From: an uncultured Alphaproteobacteria bacterium
Lineage (GTDB): Bacteria > Pseudomonadota > Alphaproteobacteria > MPNO01 > DASWLB01
NCBI GenBank assembly: GCA_963826605.1
Contig: CAWGXN010000001.1
Location: 1,495,835 to 1,559,834, forward strand
DNA: 64,000 bases
Direction of reading: 5' to 3'
A program made the translations under genes and the position numbers. The notes beneath the pieces were generated by a model, which ran no database searches, had not been told where the DNA came from, and saw only the letters and a list, made by a program, of their open reading frames with translations. The stretch's first letter is position 1. Every line of letters begins with the position of its first letter. Shown piece by piece: positions 11,968-53,984 of the stretch.

Positions 11968-11992
11968 GTGCCGGTCGTCCTCCCCGCTTGAC

Positions 11993-15098: not shown

Positions 15099-15115
15099 AG
15101 GGCAGTCTTATCACC

Positions 15116-16588: not shown

Positions 16589-16610
16589 CGCCTGACAGCG
16601 ATCTGTCCCG

Positions 16611-16714
16611 CTCGCCCTGAGGAGCCCGCGCAGCGGGCGTCTCGAAGGGCGAGCACAGCACGGTCTCGAAGTTTCGCCCTTCGAGACGCACCCTTCGGGC
16701 GCTCCTCAGGGCGA
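16611..16714. repeat. REP-like element pair (inverted copies of 'gccctgaggag-N13-gtctcgaagggcgag') between convergent genes
   Basis: Two inverted about 40-bp units at 16611-16650 and 16673-16712. A third single unit lies at 53945-53984. Confidence 0.75.
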
Positions 16715-16739
16715 ACGGAGAGGTGGAATTTGCTCCGTC

Positions 16740-17932: not shown

Positions 17933-17992
17933 TCGGGCTTGCCCCCACGGTCGGCGGGGATTTAAATCGCGGCGCAGAAGGGGAACGCACCG

Positions 17993-19430
17993 ATGAACGC
18001 CACCGCCGCCGCGACCGTCTCGCAATCCGTCCTCGACCGCATCGCCCAGGTGGTCGGGCCGCGCGGGATGATCACCGACCCTGCCGAGATCGCGCCCTAC
18101 ATGCTGGACGAGCGGCGCGAGTTCCCGCCCGGGCGCGCCGCCGCGGTGGTGCGGCCGGCCTCGACCGACGAGGTCGCGCGCGTCGTCGCCATCTGCAACG
18201 AGACCCGCACGCCGATCGTGCCGCAGGGCGGCAATACCGGCCTTACCGGCGCGTCGGTGCCGCATCCCGAGGGCGGCGAGATCGTCCTCAGCGTGAAGCG
18301 CATGAACCGGGTGCGCGACATCGACCCGCTGAACTACACCATCACGGTGGACGCGGGCGTCGTGCTCGCCGACGTGCAGAAGGCGGCCGCCGAGGCGGAC
18401 CGGCTGTTCCCGCTGTCGCTCGGCGGCGAGGGCACGGCGGTGATCGGCGGCAACGTCTCGACCAACGCGGGCGGCACCGGCGTGCTGCGCTACGGCAACG
18501 CGCGCGAGCTGGTGCTGGGGCTCGAGGTGGTGCTGCCCGACGGGCGCGTGTGGGACGGGCTCGGCCGGCTCCGCAAGGACAACACGGGCTACGACCTGAA
18601 GCAGCTTTTCATCGGGGCCGAGGGCACGCTGGGCATCGTCACCGCCTGCGTCCTCAAGCTCTATCCCAAGCCGCGCGACATCCAGACCGCCTTCGTCGCG
18701 GTGGAAGGCCCCCATGCCGCGCTCGAGCTGCTGGCGCTGGCCCGCGCCGCCTCGGACGACCGCGTGACCGGTTTCGAATGGATCCCGCGCCTGCCGCTCG
18801 ACTACGTGCTGATGAACATCCCCGGCACGCGCGACCCGCTGCCCGACCGCCACGACCACTACGTGCTGATGGAGCTCACCTCGGCTTGGGACGACGGGCC
18901 AGCTTCGGGCTTGCCTCGAGAACGTGCTGGCCGAAGGGATGGAGCGCGGCCTCGTCCGCGACGCGGCCATCGCCGAGAGCCGCGGCCAGGCGGCCGATTT
19001 CTGGAAGATCCGCGAGACGGTGCCCGAATCCCAGAAGCCGGAGGGGATCAGCATCCGCCACGACGTGGCCGTGCCCGTGTCGCAGGTGCCGGTCTTCCTC
19101 GAGCGCGCCAACGCCGCCGTATCCTCCGCCGTACCGGGCATCCGCATCTGCTCGTTCGGCCATCTCGGCGACGGCAACGTCCACTACAACCTGACCCAGC
19201 CCAAGGGCGCCGACGGCGCCGGCTACGCCGCCCGAAAGGACGAGATCAACCGGCTGGTCTACGACCAGGTCCTGGCGCTGGGCGGCTCGATCTCGGCCGA
19301 GCACGGGATCGGCCGGCAGAAGCGCCATCTGCTGCCCGAGGTGAAGCCCGCGCCGGCGATGGACCTTATGCGCCAGATCAAGCGGACGCTCGACCCCAAC
19401 AGCATCATGAACCCCGGAAAGCTTCTCTGA
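17993..19430 (+). CDS. FAD-linked oxidase (GlcD/D-lactate dehydrogenase family), one frameshift near 18900
   Basis: FAD-binding PCMH domain 'PIVPQGGNTGLTGASVP' and 'GAEGTLGIVT'. C-terminal 'GSISAEHGIGRQKRHLL' in the second frame. Confidence 0.8.
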
Positions 19431-19506
19431 CGCGCCTTTCCCTTCGTGTACCGTTCGGGCCTTGAACGCCGGATGTACCGTCGCGCGCGCGGCAACGGCA
19501 TTGCCC

Positions 19507-19646
19507 CTCGCCCTGTCCCTCTCCCAAGGGAGAGGGAACGCGGGGTTCATCCTTCCTTTTTCGCCTCCGCGAGCCGACCTTCGACAAGCACCAAGGCTGG
19601 CGCTTCAGGATCCCCTCTCCCTTGGGAGAGGGACAGGGTGAGGGGC
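19507..19646. repeat. composite palindromic repeat family A, copy 1 (between convergent genes)
   Basis: Terminal cores 'ccctgtccctctcccaagggagaggg' and 'cccctctcccttgggagagggacagggtgagggg'. Copies also at 29528-29675 and 33912-34063. Confidence 0.8.
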
Positions 19647-20984: not shown

Positions 20985-21476
20985 ATGGTTGCTCACGCTT
21001 CCGTGCCGACGAAGGTTTCGGCGGAGCCGGGACGCCCGGCTGTTCGGGTCGCAAACCCGACGAACCTGTCAGCTCTCGGTGAGAGCGAGGCGCGTTCCCC
21101 CAAGTTGGACTACTTCGTCGAGCGGGACGGGCACCTGTTCGCAGGTACACACCTCCTGATCGACTTCTGGAACGCCTCACGTCTGGACGACGTGGCGTAC
21201 ATGGAACAGGCGATGCGCAACGCGGTGGCCGCGGCGGGAGCGACGCTCCTGCACATCCACCTGCATCACTTCACGCCCTTTGGCGGCGTGTCGGGCGTGG
21301 CCGTCCTGGCGGAATCGCACATCAGCGTCCACACATGGCCGGAGCGCGGCTTCGCCGCGTTCGACGTGTTCATGTGCGGCGCGTGCGATCCGCACAAGGC
21401 CCTGCCGGTGCTGCGCGCGGCGTTCGCGCCTGAGACGATGGACGTGCGCGAGGAGAAGCGAGGGGCGGTTTATTGA
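20985..21476 (+). CDS. speH: S-adenosylmethionine decarboxylase proenzyme, pyruvoyl type (SpeH)
   Basis: 'AVLAESHISVHTWPE' self-cleavage site motif and 'LLIDFW'. The 45-aa N-terminal extension is uncertain. Confidence 0.8.
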   Translation: MVAHASVPTKVSAEPGRPAVRVANPTNLSALGESEARSPKLDYFVERDGHLFAGTHLLIDFWNASRLDDVAYMEQAMRNAVAAAGATLLHIHLHHFTPFGGVSGVAVLAESHISVHTWPERGFAAFDVFMCGACDPHKALPVLRAAFAPETMDVREEKRGAVY

Positions 21477-22331
21477 CCACAGCGCCCTCCTGGTTCTCGG
21501 AGACGCTATACCCCGACTACCAGCAACGGCACCTGGTCGAGCGGGTGCTCTACGAGGAGAAGACCGAGTTCCAGGAACTGGTCATCTTCGAGAGCCCCCG
21601 CTTCGGCCGGGTGCTGGCGCTGGACGGGGTGGTGCAGACCACCGAGCGTGACGAGTTCGTCTATCACGAGATGCTGACGCACGTGCCGATCCTGGCGCAC
21701 GGCGCGGCGAAGCGCGTGTGCATCATCGGCGGCGGCGACGGCGGCGCCATGGAAGAGGCGCTGAAGCATCCCGGCATCGAGACGGTGACGCTGGTCGAGA
21801 TCGATCCCAAGGTCGTCGAGCTGACCAAGCAGTACATCCCGTCGATCCCCGGCAAGGCGTTCGACGACCCGCGCGCCGAGCTGGTCATCGCCGACGGGCG
21901 CGAGTTCGTGAAGAACCCGCCCGCGCCGTACGACGTGATCATCGTCGATTCCACCGACCCGATCGGGCCGGCGCAGGTGCTGTTCGAACAGGATTTCTAT
22001 GCCGACTGCCGCGACGCGCTGACCGACCGCGGCATCATGATCACCCAGTCCGGCGTCACCTTCATGCAGGCCGACGAGGCCGAGGGCACGTACAAGCGCC
22101 TCGAACGCGCTGTTCCCCGACGCGACGTTCTACGTCGCCCAGGTGCCGACCTACGCCGCCGGGTTCATGACGCTCGGCTGGGGCTGCAAGGACAAGAGCG
22201 TGCGCGCCACGCCGCGCGCGACGATCGAGACACGCTTCGCCGTGGCCGAGCTCGACACGCGCTACTACAACCCCGCCATCCACGAAGCCTGCTTCGCGCT
22301 GCCCACCTATATCGAGCGGCTGAAGAGCTGA
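21473..22331 (+). CDS. speE: spermidine synthase SpeE (one inserted G near 22110)
   Basis: ATGA-coupled to speH. 'VCIIGGGDGGAMEEALKH' and 'VIIVDSTDPIGPA' motifs. C-terminus 'QVPTYAAGFMTLGW' in the shifted frame. Confidence 0.8.
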
Positions 22332-22341
22332 CGGCGCCGCC

Positions 22342-23112
22342 TCAGTTCGTCCGGATCGGCACCGGCTTGGTGGCGAGGCCGGGCTCGCCCTGCGCCTCGG
22401 CGCGCTCCAGCACGCGGCAGTAATAATCCCATAGCGAGTCCGAGCCGTAGCGCGAGCGCTGGGTATAGCGCCGGTCGGTCTCCTCGGGCTTCGGCGCCTC
22501 CCACGGCAGGCCGGCCGTCGCGGCGGCCAGCATCTGCTTGCAGGTCGCCTCGATCTGGATGCCGTTGAACACCATCTGCTCGGTGTCGCGGCCGCAGAAC
22601 GCGACGCCGTGATTGCGCATGAACACGAAGTTGGCGTCGCCGAGCGCCTGGGCGAGCGCCGCGCCCATCTCCGCAGACTGCACCAACTCGGAGGTGAGCT
22701 CGAAGCGCGGCGGCGGGTTGCGGATCGCGCGGGTGAGCGAGACCAGCGGCCCCGGCATCGCCGAGTAGATGCAGCAATGGAACGGGTGCGTATGGCCGGT
22801 CGCGTTCACGTCGGGCCGCGCCTTGAAGATTTCGGCGTGGATCGGCCATTCCGAATGGCGCGCGCCGTCGCCGAAGATCTTCTTGCCGTCCCAGTCGACC
22901 AGCACCAAGTCGCGCCAGTCATAGACCTCGCCCAGCGAGATCTGGTGGCGCTTCATCCAGAAGCCGCGCCCGTCCGGGTCGCGCAGCGCGACGTGGCCGA
23001 ACACCCGGTCGGAATGGCCCTGCATGTCGAGGATGCGCGCGCCACGGGCTAGCTTGTCGAGTTCGCGCCGGAGGTCGTCGTTCACGACGTTGGAGATGGC
23101 GGTATCGGGCAT
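22342..23112 (-). CDS. class II aldolase/adducin family protein (paralog 1)
   Basis: 'HTHPFHCCIYSA' metal-binding His motif. 256 aa. Confidence 0.8.
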   Translation of the reverse strand: MPDTAISNVVNDDLRRELDKLARGARILDMQGHSDRVFGHVALRDPDGRGFWMKRHQISLGEVYDWRDLVLVDWDGKKIFGDGARHSEWPIHAEIFKARPDVNATGHTHPFHCCIYSAMPGPLVSLTRAIRNPPPRFELTSELVQSAEMGAALAQALGDANFVFMRNHGVAFCGRDTEQMVFNGIQIEATCKQMLAAATAGLPWEAPKPEETDRRYTQRSRYGSDSLWDYYCRVLERAEAQGEPGLATKPVPIRTN

Positions 23113-23128
23113 CGCTGGGCTCCCAGGC

Positions 23129-23902
23129 TCAGTGCGGGCGGATCGGAACGGGGCTGGTGGCGAGCGTCGGCATGCCCTGCGCCTCGGCGCGCTCGAGCAC
23201 GCGCGAATAATAGTCCCACAGCGTGTCCGAGGTGCCGTAGCCCTTCGACACGCGCACCGCGTTGCCGGCGATCTCGGCGGCGGGCGGCGGCTCCCACGGC
23301 ATGCCGGAGCCGGCGGCGGCCAGCATCTGCTGGCAGGTCTCCTCGATCTGGATGGCGTTCAGCACCATCGCCTCGATCGTCTTGCCGGCGAAAATGACGC
23401 CATGGTTGCGCATCAGGCAGTACGGGTGGTCGCCCAGCGACTTGGCCAGAGCGCGGCCCATCTCCGGCGTCTGGATCAGCTCCGACGTCGCCTCGAAGCG
23501 CGGCGGCGGGGCCGTGATCGAGCGGGTGAGCGATATCAGCGGGTCGGGGATGGCGGAGAAGATGCAGCAGTGGAACGGGTGGGTATGGCCGGTCGCGTTG
23601 ATGTCGGGCCGGGCCTTGAAGATCTCGGCGTGGATCGGCCATTCGGAATGGCGCGCGCCTTCGCCGAAGATCTTCTTCCCCTCCCAGTTCACCAGCACGA
23701 AGTCGCGCCAGTCATACACCTCGCCCAGCGAGATCTGGTGGCGCTTCAGCCAGAAGCCGCGCCCGTCCGGGTCGCGATAGGCCACGTGGCCGAACACGCG
23801 GTCGGAATGGCCCTGCATGTCGAGGATGCGGGCGGCCCTGGCCAGCTTGTCGAGGTCGGCCCGCAGGCTGTCATTCACCACGTTCGAGGCGGCGTCGGTC
23901 AT
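23129..23902 (-). CDS. class II aldolase/adducin family protein (paralog 2, tandem)
   Basis: 'MTDAASNVVND...HTHPFHCCIFSA'. About 75% identical to the downstream paralog. Confidence 0.8.
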   Translation of the reverse strand: MTDAASNVVNDSLRADLDKLARAARILDMQGHSDRVFGHVAYRDPDGRGFWLKRHQISLGEVYDWRDFVLVNWEGKKIFGEGARHSEWPIHAEIFKARPDINATGHTHPFHCCIFSAIPDPLISLTRSITAPPPRFEATSELIQTPEMGRALAKSLGDHPYCLMRNHGVIFAGKTIEAMVLNAIQIEETCQQMLAAAGSGMPWEPPPAAEIAGNAVRVSKGYGTSDTLWDYYSRVLERAEAQGMPTLATSPVPIRPH

Positions 23903-26953: not shown

Positions 26954-28192
26954 CTACTCGCCTGCCGCCTCGGCGGCGTGGCGGCGCTCGACGGCGGAAT
27001 CGATGTCGCCCATGGTGAATCCCACCACGACGGCGGTGATCAGCAGAATGGCCGTGCCGGCGTGGAACACCACGTCCATCCCGCCGACGGCATAGATCAG
27101 CCCGAAGATCGGCGGCGCGATGGTCTGGCCGATGCGGAACATGGTCGAGTTGAGCGCCATCACCGCGGCCCGCGAATCGTGCGGCGCGAACTCCGCGACC
27201 AGCGTGTTGACCGAGGGGTTGAGCACCCCCTGCGCGAGGCCGCGGATGAAGGCCGGGATCAGCAGGTACCACAATGACGGCATGCCGACATTGAGCGAAA
27301 TCCCGGCGCCCGACAGGACCAGCCCGATGACGATCATCTGGCGGAAGGTGAGCAGCCGGCGGATGCGCACCGCCTGGGTCGACATGATGGTGGAGATCAC
27401 CGGGCTGAACCCGACGATGATGCCGATCTCCAGGGGCGATCCGCCGAACCGGCTGGAAATCAGGAAGGTCAGGTAGACGATCAGCACGCCGAACGAGACG
27501 GCCACCGTCATCAGGTTGCACAGGAACAAAGCTGCCATGCGCCGGTTGGCGATGCCGCGAAGCGCACTGCCCACATACTCGCCCATCGGCAGCGCGTGCT
27601 TGGGCTCGGGGTTGCGCAGCCGGAACGCCACCAGCCACGCTGCCGGCAGCCCGATCAGCGCCAGCAGGAACGGCCAGTGCCAGCCCGCCAGCGCCACCGC
27701 GCCGCCGAGGATCGGGTAGCCCAGCATCAGCGACGACATGACCGAGGCGTTGTAGCCCATCGCCTCCATGCGCCGTCGCCCGGTGAACAGCTCGCCGATG
27801 ACGGTGTTGTTGAGCGCGCCGAGCGGCGCCGCGGCGCAGCCCTGCAGGAAGCGGAGCACGATCAGCGTGGTGAAGCTCTGCGTCATCACGCAGGCCGACC
27901 CGGCAGCGGCGAACAGGATCAGGCTCGGCACCAGCACGCGCTTGCGGCCAATCCGGTCGGCGAGGATGCCGGCGACCGGCGACAGGAAGATGCCCGGCAG
28001 GGTGTTGAAGGTGATCAGCAGCCCCGCCTGCTGCGAGTTGATGTGGAACGCCTTCATGATCAGCGGGAAGGCCGGCGTGATGGTCGACGTGCCCAGCATC
28101 GCCGTCGCGGTCACGCAGAACAGGATCAACAGGTTGCGGTCGAGATAGAGCGGCCGCTCTCCGCCCCGCTTGCGGCGCGCCAGCGCGATCAT
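26954..28192 (-). CDS. MFS transporter (paralog 1)
   Basis: About 412 aa with 12 TM helices. 'GILADRIGRKRVLV' MFS motif A. ATGA-coupled to the upstream paralog. Confidence 0.8.
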   Translation of the reverse strand: MIALARRKRGGERPLYLDRNLLILFCVTATAMLGTSTITPAFPLIMKAFHINSQQAGLLITFNTLPGIFLSPVAGILADRIGRKRVLVPSLILFAAAGSACVMTQSFTTLIVLRFLQGCAAAPLGALNNTVIGELFTGRRRMEAMGYNASVMSSLMLGYPILGGAVALAGWHWPFLLALIGLPAAWLVAFRLRNPEPKHALPMGEYVGSALRGIANRRMAALFLCNLMTVAVSFGVLIVYLTFLISSRFGGSPLEIGIIVGFSPVISTIMSTQAVRIRRLLTFRQMIVIGLVLSGAGISLNVGMPSLWYLLIPAFIRGLAQGVLNPSVNTLVAEFAPHDSRAAVMALNSTMFRIGQTIAPPIFGLIYAVGGMDVVFHAGTAILLITAVVVGFTMGDIDSAVERRHAAEAAGE

Positions 28193-29404
28193 GCGGCCGC
28201 CCCGGTTCCGGTCGGGGTCGGGCCGAGCGCCCAGCCGACCGTAACCGCGCTCGCCGCCAGCATCACCGCCGCCGTGTAGAATACCGTGTCCATCCCCCCC
28301 AGCGCATAGCACAGCCCGAAGATCAGCGGGCCGAGCGTCTGGCCCGTCCGGCTGAGCATGCCGTTGAACGCCATCACCGCGGCGCGGCTCGTCACCGGGG
28401 CGTTTTCCAGCACCATCGTATAGAGCGACGGGTTGAGGATTCCCTGAGCGATGCCGCGCACGAAGGCCGGCACCAGCAGCAGCCACAGGGTTGGCATCAG
28501 CGTGTTGGTCGCCATGCCGATCGCCGACAGCAGCGTGCCCAGCACGATCATCTGGCGGTAGGTCATCAGCCGGGTGAGCCGTATCGCCTGGCTCGACATC
28601 AAGCGTGGACACGAACGAGGCCGAGGCGATCACCACGCCGATGGTGAACGGGTCGGCGTCGAACCGGTTCTTCATCAGGAGCGCGAGATAGACCATCAGC
28701 GCGCCGAACGCCACGATCACCCCCACCAGATTGGCGCTGCACAGCGTGATCATCCGCCGGTTGACGATGCTCTTGATCGCGCCGAGCAGGTACTCGCGGA
28801 AGCTCTGCGCGCCCTTGGGCTCGGGGTTGCGCAGCCCGAACGCGACGAAGCACGCGACCGGCACGGCGAACAGCGGCAGGAAGAACGGGTAGCGCCACCC
28901 CGCCAGCGCCACCAGCCCGCCCAGCATCGGGTTGTTGAGCGTCGCCATGTTCTGCACCGACGCGTTGTAGCCGATCGCCTCGGCGCGGGTGCGCCCGGAA
29001 TAGAGATCGCCGATCAGCGTGTTGTTGAGCGCGGTCAGCGCCGCGCCGCCGGTGCCCTGGACGAAGCGCAGGACGAGCAGCCAGTGGAAGCTGGGCACGA
29101 AGGCGCACGACGCGCCGGCGAAGGCGAACAGCAGCAGCGACGGGACCAGCACCCGCTTGCGCCCATAGCGGTCGGCGAGGAGCCCGACCACCGGCGCGAA
29201 CACGATGCCAGGCAGCGTGAAGAAGGTGATCAGCAGCCCCACCTGCTGCGACGAGATGTGGAAGGCGTGCATGATGGTGGGAAAGGCCGGGGTCAGCGAG
29301 CCGACGCCCATCATCGCCGTGATCGTGACCGAGAACACGATCATCAGGTTGCGCTCGAGATAGAGCGGCGGGCGGCGCTGGCCTTCGCGGGGAAACGCGG
29401 TCAT
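28189..29404 (-). CDS. MFS transporter (paralog 2; one frameshift near 28600)
   Basis: 'MTAFPREGQRRPPLYLERNLMIVFSVTITAMMG...GLLADRYGRKRVLV'. C-terminal part in a second frame. Confidence 0.75.
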
Positions 29405-29527
29405 CCGGACCTCGGTGTGGCCGGTCAAGCTAGCAGATGGCGGCCCCTGCTCCAACGCGCGGGGCTGCAAGCCAGCCCGCCGGCGCGGCCAGATCGAGAA
29501 GGGCGAACCCCGGTACCGGCGGTCACA

Positions 29528-29675
29528 CCTCACCCTGTCCCTCTCCCAAGGGAGAGGGGATGCTGCGCCAGCTTTCCTTACTTTGCTTACTTTGCCGGAA
29601 CAAGACGTACCCGACGAGGTTCAATGCTTGCACCGCGGGATCCCTCCCCCTTGAGAGAGGGACAGGGTGAGGGGG
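29528..29675. repeat. composite palindromic repeat family A, copy 2 (divergent promoter region)
   Basis: 'cctcaccctgtccctctcccaagggagagggg' ... 'ccctcccccttgagagagggacagggtgaggggg'. Confidence 0.8.
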
Positions 29676-29799
29676 CGGACGTCCAGAATTCGCGAGCTCT
29701 CGCGGACGAACGGAAGGTGCGGGCGGTCGCCCATTCTCGACCCCTGACCCCTTCCCTCGCCGGCGCGGGCGGGGCATTCTGGCCGCCAGGAGGGATTCG

Positions 29800-30835: not shown

Positions 30836-33013
30836 GTGAAACGGGCCCTCGTCCTGATCCTGGCCGCACTGCTCGGGGCCGCCGCGCCGGCGCGGGCGGC
30901 GCCGTGGACCGATTATCGCGTCATCATGTGGCAGGACCAGACGCCGGAAGCCTACCGGGCGCTCGCCGCGATCGGCGTCGACGCCGCCGCCGTGTCATGG
31001 CGCAACGTGGGCACGGAAAAGCTCGACCGGGCGCTCGCCCCGCTGCGCGCGGCCGGGCTCGGCTGGTATTTCGAGAACGTCGCCACGGATTTCTACGCGT
31101 CCTATCACCGCTGGACGCCGGGCAAGCCGGTCAATTGGCGCTTCCTCGAGACGAAGCGGCGCTACAAGGCGAACCCGGACGACCCAACCGTGTTCTACCG
31201 CGAGCCGGGATTGAACGATCCGGCCTGGCTCGCCCGCATCCGCGCCCGCCTCACGCGGGCCGCGCGCGCCGCCGCCCCCTACCCGCCATTGTTCTACAAC
31301 CTGGCGGACGAGGCCGGCATCGCCGACAACGGCTCGTACTGGGATTTCGACCTCGCGCCGCGCTCCCTCGCCGGCATGCGCACCTGGCTGCGCGGACAGT
31401 ACGGCTCGCTCGCCGCGCTCAACCGGGAATGGGGCACGGACTTCGCGCGCTGGGACGAGGTCATGCCCGAGACCACGCCGCAGGCCTTCGCGCGCACGGA
31501 TTCCAACTTCGCCGCCTGGGCGGACTTCAAGGCGTGGATGGATGTCGCCTTCGCGCGCGCGGTGCGCACGGGCACGGAGGCTTTGCACGCGGCCGACCCG
31601 GAGGCGCGCTCGGCGCTGGAAGGCGGGCAGGTGCCCGGCTGGGGCGGATACGACTACACGCGTCTCGCCGGGGCGGTCGACGTGTTCGAGATCTACGACT
31701 TCGCCCAAAACATCGACATCGTGCGCTCGCTGTCGCCGGAGACGGTGCTGCTTTCGACCAGTGGCGGCATTGGGCCGCCCGCCGCGCACCAGGCCTGGAA
31801 CCTGCTGCTGCGCGGCGAGCGCGGCATCATCCTGTGGGACCCGAAGCACCGCCTGATGCAGCCGGACGGCGCGCCGGGCCCGGGCACGGATGCGGCCGCC
31901 GCTTTGTTCGCCCGGCTGCGCGGCGGGATCGGCGCGCTGATCGCCGGCGCGAGCCCTCATTACGACCCGGTCGCGATCCTCTATTCGCCGCCGAGCTTCC
32001 GCGCCCAATGGATGCTCGACGTGAAGCCCACCGGCGCGGCATGGAGCGCGCGAACGCCCGACTCGGAGTACGAGGACAATCCGGTGCGCGCGGCACGGCG
32101 CGGCTATTTCCAGGCGCTGCGCCGGCTCGGCATCGCGCCGCGCTTCATCTCCCCTGCCCAGCTCGCCGGCGGCATCCTGGACCGCCGCAAGGACAGGATG
32201 GTGGTTCTGCCGCACGCGATCGCTTTGTCCGAGGATGAGGCGCAGGCGGTGCGGCGCTTCGCCGAAGCGGGCGGGATCGTGGTCGCCGATACGATTCCCG
32301 GGGCGTTCGACGCCCACGTGAAGAAGCGGACAGCACCCGCGTTGGCCCGACTGTTTGGCTCCGGCCGCACCAACGTCAGGCTGGTTGCACCCGAGCCCGC
32401 GGCCCTGGCCGACGCGCTCCCGCCACTGCTGGCCTCGGCCGGGATCGCGCCCGCCGTGACGGTCCGGGGCGCCGACGGCGCGCGCCCGGCCGACGTCCAG
32501 AGCTACGCCTACCGCAATGGAGACGTGACCGTGATCGCCGTGCAGCGCGAAAGGCGGAAGGGCGCGCCGGCCGAGGAAATCGTGACGCTCGACGTGCCGA
32601 AGGGCGCCTACGTCACCGACCTGATGCAAGGCCGTCGGCTCGGCCAGACGGACCGCGTGACCGTCACGCTCGGGGCGGTCGCGCCGGCCATCTATGCGGT
32701 TTCGGCGCGGCCGCTGCCGCCATTGGAGATGTCGCTCGCCGACGGGGCGGATGCGACCCTGCATCTCGGCCGCGCCTCTCCGGTTGCGCGGCTGCGGCCG
32801 ATCCACGTCGCGGTGACCGGACCCGATGGCAGGGCCGTGCCGGCCCTCACCGGAAACGTGCTGCTGACCGGGATGGCCACCGACCGGCCGGTCGCGCCCG
32901 GGCAGGACGCGCCGCAGGGAACCTGGCGCGTGCGTGTAACCGACCTGCTGGCCGGCACGACGCGCAGTTTCGCGCTGGAGGTGCCCGCTACGCGGCGAGA
33001 GCCGCGCGATTGA
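30836..33013 (+). CDS. secreted hypothetical protein, 725 aa (possible GH42-like glycoside-hydrolase fold)
   Basis: GTG start. Signal peptide 'VKRALVLILAALLGAAAPARAAP'. No strongly diagnostic motif; W/Y-rich segments 'GWYFENVATDFYASYHRW'. Confidence 0.55.
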   Translation: MKRALVLILAALLGAAAPARAAPWTDYRVIMWQDQTPEAYRALAAIGVDAAAVSWRNVGTEKLDRALAPLRAAGLGWYFENVATDFYASYHRWTPGKPVNWRFLETKRRYKANPDDPTVFYREPGLNDPAWLARIRARLTRAARAAAPYPPLFYNLADEAGIADNGSYWDFDLAPRSLAGMRTWLRGQYGSLAALNREWGTDFARWDEVMPETTPQAFARTDSNFAAWADFKAWMDVAFARAVRTGTEALHAADPEARSALEGGQVPGWGGYDYTRLAGAVDVFEIYDFAQNIDIVRSLSPETVLLSTSGGIGPPAAHQAWNLLLRGERGIILWDPKHRLMQPDGAPGPGTDAAAALFARLRGGIGALIAGASPHYDPVAILYSPPSFRAQWMLDVKPTGAAWSARTPDSEYEDNPVRAARRGYFQALRRLGIAPRFISPAQLAGGILDRRKDRMVVLPHAIALSEDEAQAVRRFAEAGGIVVADTIPGAFDAHVKKRTAPALARLFGSGRTNVRLVAPEPAALADALPPLLASAGIAPAVTVRGADGARPADVQSYAYRNGDVTVIAVQRERRKGAPAEEIVTLDVPKGAYVTDLMQGRRLGQTDRVTVTLGAVAPAIYAVSARPLPPLEMSLADGADATLHLGRASPVARLRPIHVAVTGPDGRAVPALTGNVLLTGMATDRPVAPGQDAPQGTWRVRVTDLLAGTTRSFALEVPATRREPRD

Positions 33014-33464
33014 TCTCGGTCAAGGCCAGGTCGGTCAGCGCCAGGTCGGCCTCCTTCTCCTCGTCGAGCGAGCGATGCAGCGCCGCCGCATCGTCGTCGA
33101 GCCCCTGCTGCGCCGCGAGCGCGGCGACCGTTCCGTAGGCGGCCATCTGGTGGTGTTGCACCTTCTGCAGCGCGCCGACCAGACCGACATCGCCCAGCGC
33201 GTCGCTGTCCAACGGGGCGAGCATCTTCTCCATCTTTGAGACCATCGCCTCGACGATCTGGTCCATGTGGGGCAGCGGCTCGGCCTTGTGCGCCGCGAGG
33301 ATCGCCTCGAGCCGCTCCAGGCGCAGCGCCGCACCGTCGCGGTAGCTAAGGATGTGGGCCTTGAGCGTGGGCCGCGTGGCCAGCTCGGCAACCCGCGGCA
33401 GGTCGTTCGCCAGGATGCTCTCCGCGCCCAGCACTTCCTGCAGGGTTGCGACGTAGAAGCCCAA
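32988..33464 (-). CDS. DUF892 (YciE/YciF-like ferritin-fold) protein
   Basis: 'LVGALQKVQHHQMAAYGTVAALAAQQGLDDDAAALHRSLDEEKEADLALTDLA' matches the DUF892 C-terminal helix pair. Overlaps the convergent secreted-protein gene by 26 bp. Confidence 0.65.
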   Translation of the reverse strand: MGFYVATLQEVLGAESILANDLPRVAELATRPTLKAHILSYRDGAALRLERLEAILAAHKAEPLPHMDQIVEAMVSKMEKMLAPLDSDALGDVGLVGALQKVQHHQMAAYGTVAALAAQQGLDDDAAALHRSLDEEKEADLALTDLALTEINRAALAA

Positions 33465-33521: not shown

Positions 33522-34160
33522 TCAACGGCCGGGCGGGCCGCCGGTTCCCAGCTCGGCGGCGAGGCACGCGGCGAGCGCATCGACAGCCGCCGCAACGGCC
33601 GGGCTCACGCGGCTGCCGATGTCGAAGCGCATCCCCTCGACGGCACAGACGATGCAGGCCGGCGGCAGCGTGCCAAGCGTCCGCGCCAGCTCGATGGCCT
33701 CGTGAAGCCCGAACCCGTGGGTCGACATGCCGAACCGCGCGGCGGGCAGCGATCGCGCCGCCGCGTCGAAGCGGCGGATCGTCCCTGCCGGCGCGCCGGA
33801 CGCACAGGCATCGACCAGCCATACCGCCGCCGCGCGCTCCATCAGCGCAAGCAGCGCCGTCGCCTCGCCATCGGATTCGCAAATCAAGATGTCGTCGCTG
33901 GGCGCAGGCTGACCCCCCTCCCCAGCCCTCCCCCTCAAGGGGGGAGGGGGCGTTGCGTTGCTGCCCGTGTGCGCGATGGCAACATCGCGGCCGGGCTCGA
34001 TGCACCGTCGAAAGTCCCGGCGTTCCCTCCCACGTTGAGGGGGAGGGACAGGGTGGGGGGTAAGCAGAGCGGCCAGCCGCTGGGTGACGAGGCGACCGGC
34101 GGCGTCGTCGCCCCGATCGGGATTGCCGATGCCGATCACGACGCGGCGCGGGGCGTTCAC
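33522..34160 (-). CDS. hupD: [NiFe]-hydrogenase maturation endopeptidase (HupD/HybD-like) carrying an in-frame 54-aa repeat-derived insertion
   Basis: GTG start 4 bp after the hydA stop. 'VVIGIGNPDRGDDAAGRLV' (GxGN...DDGxG) and 'VWLVDA' motifs. Repeat family A copy 3 (33912-34063) is inserted between 'RLAALL' and 'DDILICESDG' without stops. Confidence 0.7.
   Translation of the reverse strand: MNAPRRVVIGIGNPDRGDDAAGRLVTQRLAALLTPHPVPPPQRGRERRDFRRCIEPGRDVAIAHTGSNATPPPPLRGRAGEGGQPAPSDDILICESDGEATALLALMERAAAVWLVDACASGAPAGTIRRFDAAARSLPAARFGMSTHGFGLHEAIELARTLGTLPPACIVCAVEGMRFDIGSRVSPAVAAAVDALAACLAAELGTGGPPGR
33912..34063. repeat. composite palindromic repeat family A, copy 3 (intragenic, in-frame)
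   Basis: 'cccccctccccagccctccccctcaaggggggaggggg' ... 'ccctcccacgttgagggggagggacagggtgggggg'. Confidence 0.8.
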
Positions 34161-34164
34161 CGCG

Positions 34165-35455
34165 TCAGCCCCGGTCGATGTCGAGCCGCAGGAAATGCGT
34201 CGAGCACGAGATGCAGGGGTCGTAGTTGCGCACCGTCTGCTCGCAGCGATGGCGCAGATCCTTGTCGGGCAGGTCGAGGAACCCGCCCACGAAACTCGCC
34301 AGATCGGCCTCGATGGAGGCCTGGTTCTGCGATGTCGGCGGCACGATCTTCGCCGTCGCGATGGTGCCGTCCGCGTTAAGCCCGTAGCGGTGATAGAGGA
34401 GCCCGCGCGGCGCCTCCGTCGCGCCGTACCCGGTGCCGGCGCGCGGCACGACCTCGACCGCCGGCCGGTCGGGCCGCTCGTACGCGTCGATGAGGCGCAG
34501 CGCTTCGTCGCAGGCAAACAGCACCTCGACGGCCCGCACGACGATGCTGCGATACGGGTTGGTGCAGACCGGCCCGAGCCCCGCCTCGCGCGCCGCCTCC
34601 CGCGCCAGCGGCGACAGGCGCTCGAGAGTTGAGGCATAGCGCGCGAGCGGCCCACAGAGATAGTCGCCGCCGTCGGTCATGCGCGAATGCAGCGCGGTCG
34701 AGCGCGCCACGTGGGACTCCTCGAAATGCGCCTCGTAGTCGCGCACCGCGATGTCGAGCCCGCGGTTCGACACGATGCGGCCGTCATTGAACGGGTACTC
34801 GTCGGGATGGCGCAGCGCGACAAAGGTGTAGTCGCGCGACCGCTCGGGGAAGTCGAACCCCGCCACCCAGCGCACGGTTTCAAGCGCGTCGTCGCGGGCG
34901 CGCTTCAGCGTTTCGGCGAGCGGCGCGAGCTCGCGCTTCGTCGGCACGCGGTAGAACCCGCCGACGCGCACGTTGATCGGGTGGATCTCGCGCCCGCCGA
35001 GAAGGGCGACGATCTCGTTCCCCGCCTTCTTCAGCGCGAGGCCGCGCGTCACCTCCGGGCCGTGGTCCCTGGCCATCTCGATCGCGCCGTCATAGCCGAG
35101 GAAGTCGGGCGCGTGCAGCATGACGACGTGCAGCGTGTGGCTTTCGATCCACTCCCCGCAATAGAGCAGCCGCCGCAGCGCGCGCAGCGGCCCGGTCACC
35201 GCCACGCCGAGCGCGTCCTCCATCGCGTGCACCGCGCTCATCTGATACGCGACCGGGCAGATGCCGCAGATGCGCGAGGTGATGTCCGGCGCCTCCGCAT
35301 GGTCGCGGCCGCGCAGGAACGCCTCGAAAAATCGCGGCGGCTCGAAGATCGAAAGCTCGGCACGCGCGCACCTTGCCGTCGCGCACCACGACCTTGAACG
35401 CGCCCTCGCCCTCGACCCGCGCCAGATAGTCGACCTTGATGGTCCTACGGGTCAT
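34165..35455 (-). CDS. hydA: [NiFe]-hydrogenase large (alpha) subunit, group 3-like (one frameshift near 35360)
   Basis: N-terminal '[12 protein letters not shown]'. L1-like '[11 protein letters not shown]'. C-terminal L2 '[11 protein letters not shown]'. About 430 aa. Confidence 0.8.
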
Positions 35456-35528
35456 GCCGCTCGCTCTCCTCGCGGAAGCCCGGCGCGTTGCCGTTGAAGT
35501 TGCGCCAGACGCTGGCTGAAGCGCGCGC

Positions 35529-36232
35529 TCATCCATGCCGAGCATCGTTCATCCAGGCGCTGAGCGAAGGTGCGTTCGGCGTCTCCTTCGGGCCGTAGCA
35601 GCCGTAGCAGCCGCGGTCGTAGCCGGGGCACAGCGCGCCGCACCCGGCATGGGTCGCGGGGCCCAGGCAGGGCGTGCCGTGCGCCACCATCACGCAGACA
35701 TTGCCCTTCAGCTTGCACTCGATGCAGACGCTGTGCGGCGGCGTCACCGGCCGGCGCCCGGCGAGGAAGGCCGAGATCACCTCGACGAGCTGGCGCTTGG
35801 AGATCGGGCAGCCGCGCAGCTCGAAATCGACCTTCACGTGGTCGGCGATCGGCGTCGATGTGTCTCGAGCGTCTGGATATAGTCGGGCCGCGCATAGACC
35901 ACCGACGCGTATTCCTTCACGTCGGCGAAGTTGCGCAGCGCCTGGATGCCGCCCGCCGTCGCGCACGCCCCGATGGTCACGAGCGTCCTGGAGCGCAGCC
36001 GGACGTCGCGGATGCGCGCCGCATCGTGCGGCGTGGTGATCGAGCCCTCGACCAGCGACAGGTCATAGGGCCCCTTCACCGTGCCGCGCGTCGCCTCGGG
36101 GAAATAGGCGATCTCGACCGCGCCGGCGACAGCCAGCAGCTCGTCCTCGCAATCGAGCAGGGTGAGCTGGCAGCCGTCGCAGGACGCGAACTTCCATACG
36201 GCGAGACGCGGCTTGCGCGGTTTCGCGGCCAC
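35529..36232 (-). CDS. hydD: [NiFe]-hydrogenase small (delta) subunit (one frameshift near 35880)
   Basis: '[21 protein letters not shown]' proximal-cluster cysteines. C-terminal '[11 protein letters not shown]...[30 protein letters not shown]'. GTG start with AAGGAG 8 nt upstream. Confidence 0.75.
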
Positions 36233-36233
36233 G

Positions 36234-37074
36234 TCAGATCTCCTTCGTCGCCAACAGCGTGCGGATGCGGTCATAGCGGAACACCGGCCCGTCGCGACAG
36301 ACGAACACGGTGCCGAACTGGCAGTGGCCGCACAGCCCGATCGCGCATTTCATGTTGCGCTCCATCGACAGGTGGATCGCATCGTCCGTCACGCCTGCGT
36401 CCCCCAGCGCGGCGACCGCGAAGCGCATCATCACTTCGGGCCCGCAGACCAGGGCGATGGCGTGCAGCGGGTCGAACGCCGCGCGCGGGATCAGCGCGGT
36501 CACCACGCCGACATGGCCGCGCCAGTCGCCCGTCGCGTGGTCGACCGTCACCTCGATGTCGATGTCCAGCCGGCGGCGCCACTGCTCCAGCTCGCGGCGG
36601 AACAGGATCTCGTCGGGGCTGCGCGTGCCGTAGAGCAGGCAGATCGTGCCGTAGCGCTCGCGCTCGGCCAACAGCCGGTAGAGCGCGGGACGCAGCGGCG
36701 CGAGTCCGAGCCCGCCGGCGACGACCACCACGTCGCGCCCGGCCGCCTCCGCGATCGGCCAGCTCGGTGCCGAACGGGCCGCGCAGCCCGACCGCATCGC
36801 CCGGCGCGAGGCCCGTCAAGGCGCGCGACACGGGCCCGACGGCGCGAATGGTATGGACCAGCGCCCCGCCGGCGGCGGGATCGCCGCTCACGCTGATCGG
36901 CACCTCGCCGACGCCGAATACGCCCAGCATGTTGAACTGGCCGGGCGCATAGCCCGCCTCGTCCGGCGCCTCGATGTCGAGCGTCCAGGTTTCCGCCACC
37001 TCGCGCCGGCGGCGGGCGACACGGGCGACGCGCGGCACCATCGGGTCGGGCTCAGCCACCGTCCGGCCGTCCAT
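36234..37074 (-). CDS. hydG: hydrogenase gamma subunit, FAD/NAD(P)-binding with [2Fe-2S] (one frameshift near 36790)
   Basis: '[17 protein letters not shown]' NAD-binding motif. C-terminal '[12 protein letters not shown]' 2Fe-2S site. Confidence 0.7.
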
Positions 37075-37528
37075 AGACGTCGAGAATCTGCAGCCGGGTC
37101 GCCTGCAGCCGCTGGGCGATGACCGGCAGGAAGCGCATCAGCACGTCATATCCGAGATCGTGGTCCGCCTCGCACTTCTCGCGCAGGCACCTCGCATCCA
37201 TCGCGATGGCGCGCACCAGCACCAGCGCCTTCGCGTCGTAGGTCCAGCGATAGGGCGGGATCAGCCAGGACACGCCGACGATCTCGCCGGCGACGATGGT
37301 CTGGAAGGTGACGGCACCGCGGCCCGGCGCCGTCACCTCGAGCGCCACGCGCCCGTGGCGCAGCAGGTAGAAGCTGTCTGCCGGCTCGCTTTCGCGGAAC
37401 AGGTACTGGCCCGCCTCGAACCGCACGTTCTTCGCGCAGCCGCAGATCAGGTCGCAGAACGCGTCGGGCAGCCCGGCGAAGAACGGATGCTCGCGTACGA
37501 TCCGGTCGATGCCCTCGATCTCCACCAT
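37052..37528 (-). CDS. cyclic-nucleotide-binding domain protein (no DNA-binding domain)
   Basis: 158 aa. '[29 protein letters not shown]' cNMP-binding beta-barrel. Embedded between hydB and hydG. Confidence 0.7.
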
Positions 37529-37537
37529 GGCCCCTCC

Positions 37538-38656
37538 TCAGCGCGACGGCGTCTCGCGGATCGCGCGTACCTCCTCGGTGATGTCGATACCGACCGGGCA
37601 CCAGGTGATGCAGCGCCCGCAACCCACGCAGCCGGACGTGCCGAACTGATCGTACCAGGTCGACAGCTTGTGGGTCATCCACTGGCGATAGCGCGAGCGG
37701 GTGGAGGCGCGCACCGAGCCGCCGTGAATATAGGAGAAATCCATCGTGAAGCAGGAGTCCCAGCGGCGCGACCGCGACGTCTCGGTTCCGGTCAGGTCGC
37801 TGGAGTCCTCGACCGAGGTGCAGAAGCAGGTGGGGCACACCATCGTGCAGTTGCCGCAGGACAGGCACCGCTGCGCCACCTCGTCCCAGCGCGGATGATC
37901 GAGATTGGCAAGAAGGAGCTGGTGCACATCCTCCTCGTGCATCTCGCGCCCCATCGTGGCGGCGGCGTGCGCGACGGCCGCCTCGGCCGCGGCCGTATCG
38001 GCCTCGGTCGCCGCCCGCTGCGGCAGGCCGGCCAGGATTTCGCCGCCCCTTTCGGAGCCGACCTCGACCACGAAAGACCGTTCGCCCTCGACCACGATCT
38101 CGGTCAAGGCGAGGTCGAACCCGCCAGTCGCCTTGGGGCCGGCCTTCATCGAGACGCAGAAGCAGGTACCGCCCGCCGTGCCGCAATTCACCGCGACCAC
38201 GAACGCGCGCTCGCGCCGCGCCTTGTAGTCGGGATCGACGTGGGCGCCCTCGAGGAACACGCGGTCCTGGATCGCGATGGCGCCGAGGTCGCACGACCGC
38301 ACCCCGATGAAGGCGAAGCGCTCCTCGCTGGGCGGCTCGGGCGTGACCTCCACCCCGTCTTCCGTGCGGCGGGCCTGCCACAGGCGCAGCACCGGCGGGT
38401 GCAGGAAGCGCTTCCAGCTATGCGGCCCGACCGCGTAACCGAACAGCGCGTCGTCCTCGCGCCGTGCGAGGCGATAGGTGCCGCCGTCCTGCGTGTCGGT
38501 CCAGCCGCGCGGCAGGTCGGCGACCCCGGCGACGTCGTCATAGACGATCGCCTGATCGCGCAGGGTGGGGCCGATCAGCCGATAGCCGCGGTCGCGCAAT
38601 GCGCCAAGAAGGGCGTCGAGCGCGTCGATGCCAATCACGACGGGATCGCCGGTCAT
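37538..38656 (-). CDS. hydB: hydrogenase beta subunit (4Fe-4S dicluster protein, sulfhydrogenase HydB-like)
   Basis: 372-aa intact ORF. '[16 protein letters not shown]' and '[12 protein letters not shown]' ferredoxin-type Cys motifs. Confidence 0.75.
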
Positions 38657-38764
38657 GCGCGCTGGGCCCGGGCGGTGCTCATGCGGCTGCTATGGTTTCA
38701 CAGCATGTCCGGCGAATAAAGGGAATCCGCGGTCGCACCCGCGTCGCGGGCGCCGGGAACGTCG

Positions 38765-48958: not shown

Positions 48959-49935
48959 CTACCAGCGGATCAGGCTGGACGCCCAGGTGAAGCCGCCGCC
49001 CATCGCCTCGAGCAGCAGAAGCTGGCCAGGCCGGATGCGCCCGTCGCCCACCGCCTCGGCGAGGGCGAGCGGGATCGACGCGGCCGAGGTGTTGGCGTGG
49101 CGGTCGATGGTCACGACCACCTTCTCGGCCGGGAGGCCCAGCTTGCGCGCCGTGCCGTCGAGGATGCGCCGGTTGGCCTGGTGCGGCACCAGCCAGTCGA
49201 CGTCGGAGGCGGCGATCCCGTTGGCCGCCAGCGCCTCGTCCACCACGGCGGCCAGGTTGGTGACGGCGTGGCGGAATACCTCCTTGCCCTGCATGCGCAC
49301 ATGGCCGGCCTTGCCGGTGGAGGACGGCCCGCCATCGACGTAGAGCATGTCGTGCTGGCGTCCGTCGGAATGGAGGTGGCAGTGAGAGGACGCCGCGGTC
49401 GGTCTTGGCGCCCGTCCCCTCGACGGCCTGCAGCACCACGGCGCCGGCGCCGTCGCCGAACAGCACGCAGGTCGCACGGTCCGACCAGTCGAGGATGCGC
49501 GAGAAGGTCTCGGCGCCGATCACCAGGGCCGTCTTCGCCTGGCCCAGCCGGATGAAATTGTCGGCGATGTTCAGTGCGTAGATGAAGCCCGAGCACACCG
49601 CCTGCACGTCGAAGGCGGCGCCGTGGGTGACGCCCAGCATCGCCTGCACGCGGGTCGCGGTGGCGGGAAAGGTCTCGTCCGGCGTGGCGGTGGCCAGGAC
49701 GATCAGGTCGAGCGCGTCCGCCTCCATGCCGGCGGCGGCGAGCGCGCGGCGGGCAGCGGCGCAGGCGAGGTCGCGAGGTCATCTCGCCCTCGGCGGCGAT
49801 GTGGCGCTCGCGGATGCCGGTGCGCTGGACGATCCACTCGTCCGACGTGTCGACCATGCGGGCCAAGTCGTGGTTGGTCAGGATGCGTTCGGGGAGATAG
49901 GCCCCGCTTCCGACGACGGCGGACCGGAGCACCAT
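48959..49935 (-). CDS. fabH: 3-oxoacyl-ACP synthase III FabH (two frameshifts, about 49786 and 49395)
   Basis: '[47 protein letters not shown]', '[16 protein letters not shown]', '[10 protein letters not shown]', '[13 protein letters not shown]' split over three frames. Confidence 0.85.
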
Positions 49936-50985
49936 CAGGATGCGGCGAGGCTCTGCTGGACCGGCAGCTTGTCCGCGCCGAACACCTCCAGCTCCTTGGT
50001 GATCACACCGTTGAAGCCGTTCACCGCCATGTCCACCGCCACGCCGATGGCGTTGGCGAAGCCGATCGTGTCGGTGCCGCCGTGGCTCTTGACCACGATG
50101 CCGTTGAGCCCGACCAGCATGGCGCCGTTGTAGCGCCGGGGATCGAGCCGAGCGCGCAGCTTTTTCAGCGCGCGCCGGGCCAGGAGATAGCCCAGCCGCG
50201 ACGACAGCGAGCTGCGGAAGGTGCGGGCCAGGAACTCGGAATAGAGCTTGGCCGTGCCCTCGGCGGTCTTGAGCGCGACGTTGCCGGAGAACCCGTCGGC
50301 CACCACCACGTCCGACGTGCCGCGGGTGATGTCGTCGCCCTCGACGAAGCCGTGGAAGCGGATCAGGTCGGAGGCGCGCAGCATGGCGGCGGCGCGGCGC
50401 ACCTCGTCATGGCCCTTCGATTCCTCCGCGCCGACATTCAGAAGCCCCACCGTCGGCTCGGGTATGCCCAGCACGATGCGGGCGAACACGTCGCCCATCA
50501 GCGCGAACTGGACCAGATTCTCGGCGGAGCAGTCGAGATTGGCGCCGAGGTCGAGCATCACCGTCTCGCCCCGCTGGGTCGGGAAGTAGCCGGCGATCGC
50601 CGGACGATCGATGCCCGGCAGGGTGCGCAGCGACCAGCTTCGCCATCGCCATCAGCGCGCCGGTATTGCCGGCCGAGACGACGCCAGCCGCGCGCCCGTC
50701 GCGCACCGCGTCGATGGCGAGCCGCATGCTGGAATTCTTGCCCTGGCGCAGCGCCACCCCGACGCGGGCATCGTTCGACACCGCGTCTTCCGTGTGGTGG
50801 ACCGTGACGCGGTTCTTCAGCCGGCGCAGGCGCTTGAGGGCCCGGCCCATGCGCCGCTCGTCGCCGTAAAGCTGGAAATCCACGTCGGGAAAGCGCCGGC
50901 AGGCCATGGCGGCGCCCTTCAGCACCATGCCCGGCGCGTTGTCGCCACCCATGGCATCGAGCGCGATGGTCAGCCTGCCGCTCAC
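49935..50985 (-). CDS. plsX: phosphate acyltransferase PlsX (one frameshift near 50620)
   Basis: '[21 protein letters not shown]' N-terminus in one frame. '[22 protein letters not shown]...[14 protein letters not shown]' in another. Confidence 0.85.
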
Positions 50986-53934: not shown

Positions 53935-53944
53935 GCGACCGTCC

Positions 53945-53984
53945 GCCCTGAGGAGGCGCCAACGGCGTCGTCTCGAAGGGCGAG
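53945..53984. repeat. REP-like unit 'gccctgaggag-N13-gtctcgaagggcgag' between convergent genes
   Basis: Matches the units at 16611-16712. Confidence 0.7.

Follow-up and report, generated by a model that had tools for sequence, protein, structure and literature searches.

An in-frame palindromic repeat with BoxC/TM_ECO architecture in a hydrogenase maturation protease gene of an uncultured alphaproteobacterium

We analysed a 64,000-nucleotide stretch of contig CAWGXN010000001.1 from an uncultured Alphaproteobacteria bacterium (hereafter the window), in which a hydrogenase maturation protease gene carries an additional palindromic segment. The results confirmed that this insert is a real, correctly located, in-frame palindromic repeat, and its sequence and architecture place it in the BoxC/PIT/TM_ECO family, whose members we call TM units. 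The explanation that we favour, with a probability of roughly 0.65, is that an inverted pair of TM units was gained once and tolerated as a disordered loop while the protease kept working. The insert ties a poorly understood BoxC/triplex repeat to the known in-frame colonisation of genes by small palindromes, a link that we did not find reported in the searchable literature.

The insert and its repeat family

The gene lies at 33522-34160 on the minus strand, begins with GTG and encodes a 212-residue hydrogenase maturation endopeptidase of the HycI/HybD/HoxW type. Its product is 100% identical to the database protein P0001, and a search of a large protein database returned about 1800 homologues, the best 120 of which are mostly 150-170 residues long. 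Pfam PF01750 (HycI) matched the protein with 33.1 bits (cut-off 23), aligning residues 101-199 with positions 27-126 of a profile of 130; the N-terminal part is cut off from this matched region by the insert. The order along the protein is GIGNPDRGDDAAGRLVTQRLAALL, then 57 residues, then ILICESDGEATALL. We aligned the protein with 74 close homologues. The results showed that 70 of them have only two or three residues between columns L33 and I91, where the window protease has 57; longer stretches were found in P0008 (7 residues), P0036 (15) and P0004 (32). The preliminary description of this DNA had placed a repeat in this open reading frame between '...RLAALL' and 'DDILICESDG' and had counted 54 additional residues without a stop codon. 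The location (34160-33522, minus strand) was confirmed, and the additional residues, which are Pro/Gly/Arg-rich and stop-free, were recovered by the alignment.

The palindrome itself is 150 bp long (33912-34061; inverted repeat I7) and ends in a perfect terminal inverted repeat, ACCCCCC...GGGGGGT, read directly from the sequence. It corresponds exactly to codons 34-83 (TPHPVPPPQRGRERRDFRRCIEPGRDVAIAHTGSNATPPPPLRGRAGEGG) and contains no stop codon; the reported in-frame state held at the refined boundaries. The element is an inverted pair of BoxC/TM units, each recognised by pattern match, with a centre between them. The gene-proximal (5') arm (34025-34061, G-rich strand plus) reads CCCTCCC-ACGTTGA-GGGGGAGGG-ACA-GGGTGGGGGGT and encodes TPHPVPPPQRGR, while the gene-distal arm (33912-33948, G-rich strand minus) reads CCCTCCCCC-CTTGA-GGGGGAGGG-CTG-GGGAGGGGGGT and encodes PPPPLRGRAGEGG. 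Between the arms lies a unique centre of 76 nt (33949-34024), translated as ERRDFRRCIEPGRDVAIAHTGSNAT and absent from L126, a relative with an empty site. Five extra codons, QPAPS (33897-33911, minus strand), adjoin the element; they are non-palindromic and are likewise absent from L126 ('RRLWALARDDFEILESDG'). The insert had previously been described as a 162-bp palindromic repeat at 33902-34063. Its palindromic nature stands, but the palindrome covers 150 bp and is made of two units of about 37 nt around a unique centre; the alignment upheld the insertion, the terminal inverted repeat sets the refined boundaries, and QPAPS falls outside the palindrome.

The element was predicted to fold as one long hairpin, both as RNA (-105.5 kcal/mol, z -6.1) and as DNA (-55 kcal/mol, z -5.6), and its G+C content is 72%. 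Four of the six reading frames of the 150-nt element are open, so that a stop-free insert is unremarkable in itself; the informative part is that its length is a multiple of three.

The BoxC/PIT/TM_ECO motif is 5'-CCCTCNCCC N3-6 GGGNGAGGG N3 GGGNGAGGG (Holder et al. 2015, PMC4666352). It has been described as a G/C-rich class II intrastrand triplex motif with 3610 occurrences in 262 proteobacterial genomes, in which mirror-symmetric G blocks form G*G:C, A*A:T or T*A:T triads (PMC4666352). The 23 copies in Escherichia coli MG1655 are 'always located intergenically' and in five cases form inverted pairs; the motif shows no tie to transposons, phages or plasmids and no promoter or terminator activity, and it goes with local sequence variability (PMC4666352). 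We compared the window with this pattern. Three arms of the two other inverted pairs in the window fitted the exact TM_ECO pattern when loop 1 was allowed 1-8 nt, and both arms of the protease copy fitted the C/G variant CCCTCCC-N-GGGAGGG-N3-GGGNGGGG, with 0 matches expected in shuffles in either case. The mirror symmetry of the two G blocks in the protease arms, GGGGGAGGG-CTG-GGGAGGGGG and GGGGGAGGG-ACA-GGGTGGGGG, was read directly. A literature search with the exact arm sequence returned unrelated primers only. Earlier literature on BoxC and PIT reportedly includes Bachellier et al. in the 1990s and Hoyne and Maher in 2000.

Within the window, the arm motifs gave five matches at no more than 2 mismatches against 0.29 expected, forming three inverted pairs (19503-19646, 29528-29672 and 33912-34061); the proposed 'Repeat family A' is thus real. 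Only one of the three pairs is genic. Their likeness is confined to the arms (about 31-41 nt, and about 37 nt in the protease copy), and no similarity was detected among their centres of 76, 83 and 76 nt (z below 2). An Rfam scan of the whole window returned two tRNAs only.

We then scanned one genome per species with the 16-nt arm core and found at least 135 matches, counted in the 120 loci listed. The full unit, CCCCTCACCCTGT-CCCTCTCCC-loop-GGGAGAGGG-GAC, was present in 84 of the matches listed, with hosts from the Alpha-, Gamma- and Deltaproteobacteria, Myxococcota, Rhodothermales, Verrucomicrobia and Planctomycetes, and one Peribacteria genome (loci L002-L121). In these 84 units, covariation was seen between outer-block position 4 and inner C-block position 6 (T/T 64, C/C 11, T/C 3, C/T 0; Fisher 5e-11). 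The two positions are not Watson-Crick partners and would correspond in the triplex scheme; since descent within subfamilies would look alike, we take this covariation as supportive only. At one locus (L015), two pairs have common arms and a common centre, which indicates that whole pairs can be copied. The E. coli genomes contained about five recognisable copies each. In E. coli HUE1 (L122, 1500-1610), an inverted BoxC/TM pair occupies the 126-nt cpsG-wcaJ spacer, whereas K-12 (L123) has a 54-nt spacer without the pair, and the K-12 annotation contains no repeat feature at this site.

Protease function and history of the insert

To place the insert on the protein, we used an AlphaFold2 model. 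The core was modelled with confidence (126 residues with a predicted local distance difference test score, pLDDT, of at least 90) and resembles the HycI/HybD structures 5zby, 2e85, 1cfz and 5ija (Foldseek, target TM-scores 0.69-0.77). The insert was modelled as unstructured (block means 37-55) between a helix (17-33) and a strand (91-96), and it most likely lies in a disordered surface loop between helix 1 and strand 2. The suggestion that a structural model might show a surface loop at this site therefore agrees with a disordered loop beside a core of pLDDT above 90. Because a helix of 17 residues runs from the conserved Asp pair to the start of the insert, helix geometry would put the insert about 20 Å from the metal site. 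All columns that are invariant in the 74 homologues are present, including G12, N13, G17, D18, D19, D117, S146 and H148. The metal ligands of HybD are Glu16, Asp62 and His93, which we take to be equivalent to D18/D19, D117 and H148 of the window protease.

We compared the protease gene (window 33522-34160) with those of the relatives L001 (10001-10597) and L126 (6001-6459), which, together with L124, come from a single ENA assembly (ERZ25039495). The ratio of nonsynonymous to synonymous substitution rates (dN/dS) of the protease core was 0.30 between the window and L001, 0.28 between the window and L126, and 0.23 between L001 and L126. The dN to L126 was 0.273 for the window and 0.280 for L001, and the dN to L124 was 0.305, 0.322 and 0.344 for the window, L001 and L126, respectively. 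As judged from these distances, the protease of the window lineage has no rate excess and has been kept under purifying selection. Two lineages, those of the window and of L001, also keep an uninterrupted frame across elements that differ in length. Together with the structural model, these comparisons suggest that the protease is probably still functional and likely trims the C-terminal extension of the hydrogenase large subunit.

The loop differs among the relatives. L126 encodes P0038 (152 residues) beside the same hydrogenase operon and has the standard loop RRLWALAR-DD-FEILESDG, that is, an empty site. L001, whose operon is intact and whose locus is in synteny with the window, encodes P0004, and its loop contains a perfect 51-bp palindrome, ACCCCCCACCCTGTCCCTCCC-TCTCAAGG-GGGAGGGACAGGGTGGGGGGT. 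This palindrome agrees with the window element in orientation and reading frame (TPHPVPPSQGGRDRVGG), belongs to the same C-rich subtype, and is 92% identical to the gene-proximal arm of the window over 38 nt. The more distant L124 encodes P0036, with hypA, F, C, D and E following, and its longer loop of 15 residues contains no visible remnant of the repeat. In 45 kb of L001, L124 and L126, no further TM units were found. At the nucleotide level the operon is 86.3% identical between the window and L001, 83.8% between L126 and either of them, and about 74% for L124. A comparable linker in orthologues, which might have spoken against an insertion, was thus seen in L001 only; as it belongs to the same repeat family, it supports the insertion reading.

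These comparisons suggest the following history. An inverted pair would have entered the protease gene at the stretch encoding the three residues that join helix 1 to strand 2. This would have happened a single time, in the last ancestor shared by the window and L001, after L126 had split off. The element may have survived through a length that is a multiple of three and a stop-free frame. In L001, loss of internal DNA between the arms would later have reduced the pair to the single 51-bp palindrome. A deletion between the inner CCCTCCC blocks would leave exactly such a single palindrome, in line with the pairs of E. coli, for which deletions preserving a hairpin have been reported (PMC4666352). 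For these loci, the most parsimonious account is a single gain in that ancestor and a later collapse in L001. The sister genomes would then form a natural series of empty loop, full pair and collapsed palindrome, which bears on whether the protease tolerates a disordered loop of 50 residues and on whether triplex-prone DNA destabilises the gene that carries it.

Separate acquisition of the window and L001 elements, with loop-coding DNA acting as a hot spot that tolerates or attracts repeats, is possible though unlikely. The flanks differ between the two genes (LAALL/element/QPAPSDD in the window, LAAMIGALSSDTLPP/element/FFGNA in L001), the extra flank of L001 is unlike the window centre, TM loci have been reported to be unusually variable (PMC4666352), and the protease distances among the window, L001 and L126 are star-like. 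Against this, the two elements have in common the loop, the orientation, the frame (TPHPVPP...) and the C-rich subtype, with arms that are 92% identical; the window and L001 are each other's closest relatives by the flanking operon; and TM units are too sparse in the 45 kb of the three relatives for a coincidence to be likely. It could also be proposed that the arms inserted separately around a long native loop, of which the 76-nt centre would be the original protease sequence. This would fit the unrelated centres of the three pairs, the G+C-rich centre that reads through in frame, and the lengthened loops of L124 (15 residues) and P0008 (7). We consider it very improbable, as the short loop of L126, the nearest empty site, leaves no room for a centre of 25 residues, the near-equal spacing in the three pairs (76, 83 and 76 nt) is not expected from independent insertions, and the L015 pairs, with common arms and centre, show that pairs are copyable whole.

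Two further explanations concern the state of the sequence. The codon-usage model indicated about two dozen apparent frameshifts across the window, in the regions 872-2748, 3019-4617, 14336-15107, 17966-19412, 21474-22325, 48968-50973 and 55470-57192 and also at 35362, 35863 and 36756. They split the genes for a sigma-54 activator, FlhA, a GluQ-tRNA synthetase-like protein, an FAD oxidase, spermidine synthase, FabH, PlsX, a ClC channel and three hydrogenase subunits, and Pfam confirmed those in FlhA (profile positions 13-75 / 74-259 / 342-414 / 419-485), PlsX (1-113 / 116-322) and FabH. Since FlhA, PlsX and FabH are broken too, and a living cell cannot lose all of them, the frameshifts, including the three in the hydrogenase genes, are probably indel errors of the assembly. 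Pseudogenisation of the hydrogenase genes was rejected as their explanation because the frameshifts occur assembly-wide. The relatives' contigs bear names (contig_NNNN) similar in form to those used in long-read metagenome assemblies, for example in the Microflora Danica metagenome-assembled genomes. Pseudogene calls anywhere in the window are accordingly unsafe, and the operon only looks broken, probably through assembly errors.

That the hydrogenase operon is decaying, so that the insert sits in a gene no longer needed and its in-frame state is luck, is improbable on this evidence. It would account for the apparent frameshifts in the large (near 35362), small (near 35863) and NAD/FAD (near 36756) subunits, which do not lie in long homopolymers, and for the codon-usage model calling the protease region non-coding, with four of the six element frames being open anyway. 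However, FlhA, PlsX, FabH and apparently the sigma-54 activator, the ClC channel and others are split in the same manner; apart from single shifts, the hydrogenase proteins are 85-96% identical to those of L001 with dN/dS of 0.11-0.23; and the protease has a dN/dS of 0.3 rather than 1, with all conserved positions intact. An assembly artefact, in which a long-read assembler misplaced the repeat in the gene, would suit an error-prone assembly and an element with homopolymer-rich repeat arms. It is extremely improbable: the independently assembled L001 contig has a related element in the same loop, the frame runs on into well-aligned protease sequence on both sides, and indel errors differ in kind from a 150-bp insertion.

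Several observations weigh against a single gain that left a working protease. The subunit frameshifts and the non-coding score of the protease region, described above, belong here. In L001, 10 extra codons separate the helix end from the palindrome, and in the window 5 follow the element; because these flanking codons differ, insertion at the same nucleotide position cannot be shown. No direct repeat was found at the element ends as a target-site duplication (...GCAGGCTG / element / AAGCAGAG...), and we know of no enzyme that mobilises BoxC/TM units. Homopolymer lengths inside the element are uncertain, since the assembly has many indel errors. The structural model carries no reliable information on the insert itself, and a loop of 57 residues might get in the way when the protease docks on the large subunit. 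The protease is also three to four times more diverged than the adjacent hydrogenase genes, in the empty-site lineage as well: among the three close lineages its dN is about 0.27 and its dS 0.9-1.2, compared with a dN of 0.07-0.11 for the large subunit, and the pairwise distances are near-equal.

In-frame units in other proteins and known repeat systems

To determine whether other TM units are translated, we searched for stop-free frames that run through a sampled unit and extend for 100 codons or more to either side of it, and then ran Pfam on them. This procedure replaced a test of the coding context of the units based on the periodicity of G+C at third codon positions (GC3), which was too noisy and missed known cases. 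The results showed that at least 4 of the 84 sampled units lie in frame in Pfam-verified proteins, which are unrelated and come from genomes of different phyla. One unit lies between the DEAD and Helicase_C domains of a DEAH helicase (L014, about 3497), one in the linker between the lipoyl and E3-binding domains of a dihydrolipoamide (E2) acyltransferase (L087, about 960), and one in the linker before a membrane segment of a Ser/Thr kinase (L084, about 5988); in a histidine phosphatase (L035, about 7582), the domain is split by a whole pair. A search of the repeat-encoded peptides against the large protein database gave six weak, short hits. These findings indicate that the protease case is not unique and that TM units do get translated in loops and linkers.

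We tentatively propose, as a possibility rather than an expectation, that BoxC/TM units, hitherto regarded as an intergenic peculiarity of enterobacteria and cyanobacteria, have become established in frame many times over, within the loops and linkers of ordinary proteins across bacterial phyla. If this is true, free-living bacteria would have in TM units a general source of new surface loops, comparable to Rickettsia palindromic elements (RPEs). The peptides that the units encode (PHPVPLP..., SPLPxGEGQGEG) would remain recognisable after speciation, and the units would provide a natural marker for testing the tolerance of triplex-prone DNA in transcribed and translated genes.

The protease insert resembles TM_ECO in its arm pattern (or the C/G variant), the mirror-symmetric G blocks, the inverted pairs, the collapse that keeps a hairpin, the wide spread and the variable loci. 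It differs in location: all 23 MG1655 copies are intergenic, whereas the protease copy is translated in frame (codons 34-83). The intergenic location is a property of the E. coli copies and is outside the motif definition. The centre of the protease pair measures 76 nt, while that of the single E. coli pair inspected measures about 38 nt. With stems counted as 9 nt, the c1/c2 arms have a loop 1 of 2 nt, compared with 3-6 nt in the published pattern. Published occurrences come from 262 proteobacterial genomes, whereas the units sampled here extend to several further phyla.

RPEs were described by Ogata et al. (2000) as palindromic elements lying in frame in unrelated genes at sites compatible with the fold, as summarised in PMC10969869. 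The preliminary description had likened the insert to them. The likeness holds for behaviour, namely a palindrome of about 150 bp placed in frame in a surface loop of a conserved enzyme, with unrelated genes affected in different genomes and an added peptide compatible with the fold. Membership of the RPE family is not supported; the arms fit BoxC/PIT/TM_ECO. The G+C content of the insert is 72%, and its genome is of a free-living, G+C-rich, alphaproteobacterial type; this base composition makes homology to RPEs unlikely. In addition, one of the three window copies is genic, whereas in R. conorii close to half of the RPEs are, according to the same review.

REPINs are inverted REP doublets moved by RAYT transposases (PMC3116915, PMC3337134). 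The insert resembles them as an inverted doublet that folds as one hairpin with arms better conserved than the spacer. Its arms have no GTAG or CGTC head, which is typical of most REPs (PMC3733652), and TM units show no link to mobile-element genes (PMC4666352). No RAYT gene was seen in the 64-kb window, where not all open reading frames were screened and none was sought. Small non-coding repeats of the ERIC/MITE type also lie at times inside open reading frames and are read through (Delihas 2007, as cited in PMC10969869), in which respect the protease copy is similar. It belongs to another sequence family, and no target-site duplication was seen at its ends. Terminal inverted repeats are present; with no visible target-site duplication, the label MITE seems unjustified.

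Hydrogenase operon and other features of the window

The minus strand carries a six-gene [NiFe]-hydrogenase cluster in which the maturation endopeptidase gene is last. Its presumed substrate, the [NiFe]-hydrogenase large subunit (34165-35464, minus strand; Pfam NiFeSe_Hases, with its apparent frameshift as given above), was identified from translations. It has a C-terminal extension of the kind removed by such proteases and ends 4 nt before the protease gene, whose GTG start lies 4 nt past the large-subunit stop. The remaining operon (35574-38662, minus strand) consists of the genes for an Fe-S subunit (38662-37550), a cyclic-nucleotide-binding protein (37533-37073), the NAD/FAD subunit (37072-36237) and the small subunit (36236-35574), the last two with the frameshifts already mentioned. 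From this set of subunits, the enzyme looks like a group 3b hydrogenase (HyhBGSL-type). The gene order of the operon is intact in L001, L124 and L126, and no hyp maturation genes were found beside the operon within the window.

The gene with the cyclic-nucleotide-binding domain lies between the Fe-S and NAD/FAD genes in all four loci (window 37073-37533, L001 6642-7115, L124 2636-3097 and L126 2631-3107), and its window and L001 versions are 93% identical. The DNA just 3' of the protease gene is rearranged: the window has a DUF892 gene (32988-33464), while L001 (10438-12911) and L126 (6470-8835) have beta-CASP and LOG-family genes. Triplex-motif loci are reported to be variable, and the rearrangement fits this but is no evidence for it.

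The other two inverted TM pairs of the window are intergenic in setting. The second (19503-19646, 144 bp; I8) has convergent genes on either side, and both of its arms fit the published TM_ECO pattern. The third (29528-29672, 145 bp; I11) is flanked by divergent genes and is absent from the orthologous intergenic region of L001. We sought an empty site and a target duplication for this pair, and the indel relative to L001 was about 250 nt and exceeds the element. The pair, together with about 100 nt of flank (window 29461-29747), is missing at L001 16166-16201, a case of presence and absence between close relatives.

A second, unrelated palindromic family with arms of 45 nt (CCGCTCGCCCTGAGGAGC...GTCTCGAAGGGCGA) was present at 16608-16718 and 53939-53983, as one inverted pair with a 21-nt spacer and one single arm. 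The window further contains three sets of tandem paralogues (11189-12542, 22341-23728 and 27291-29369) with DNA identities of 72-88%, the last of which is a pair of MFS transporters.

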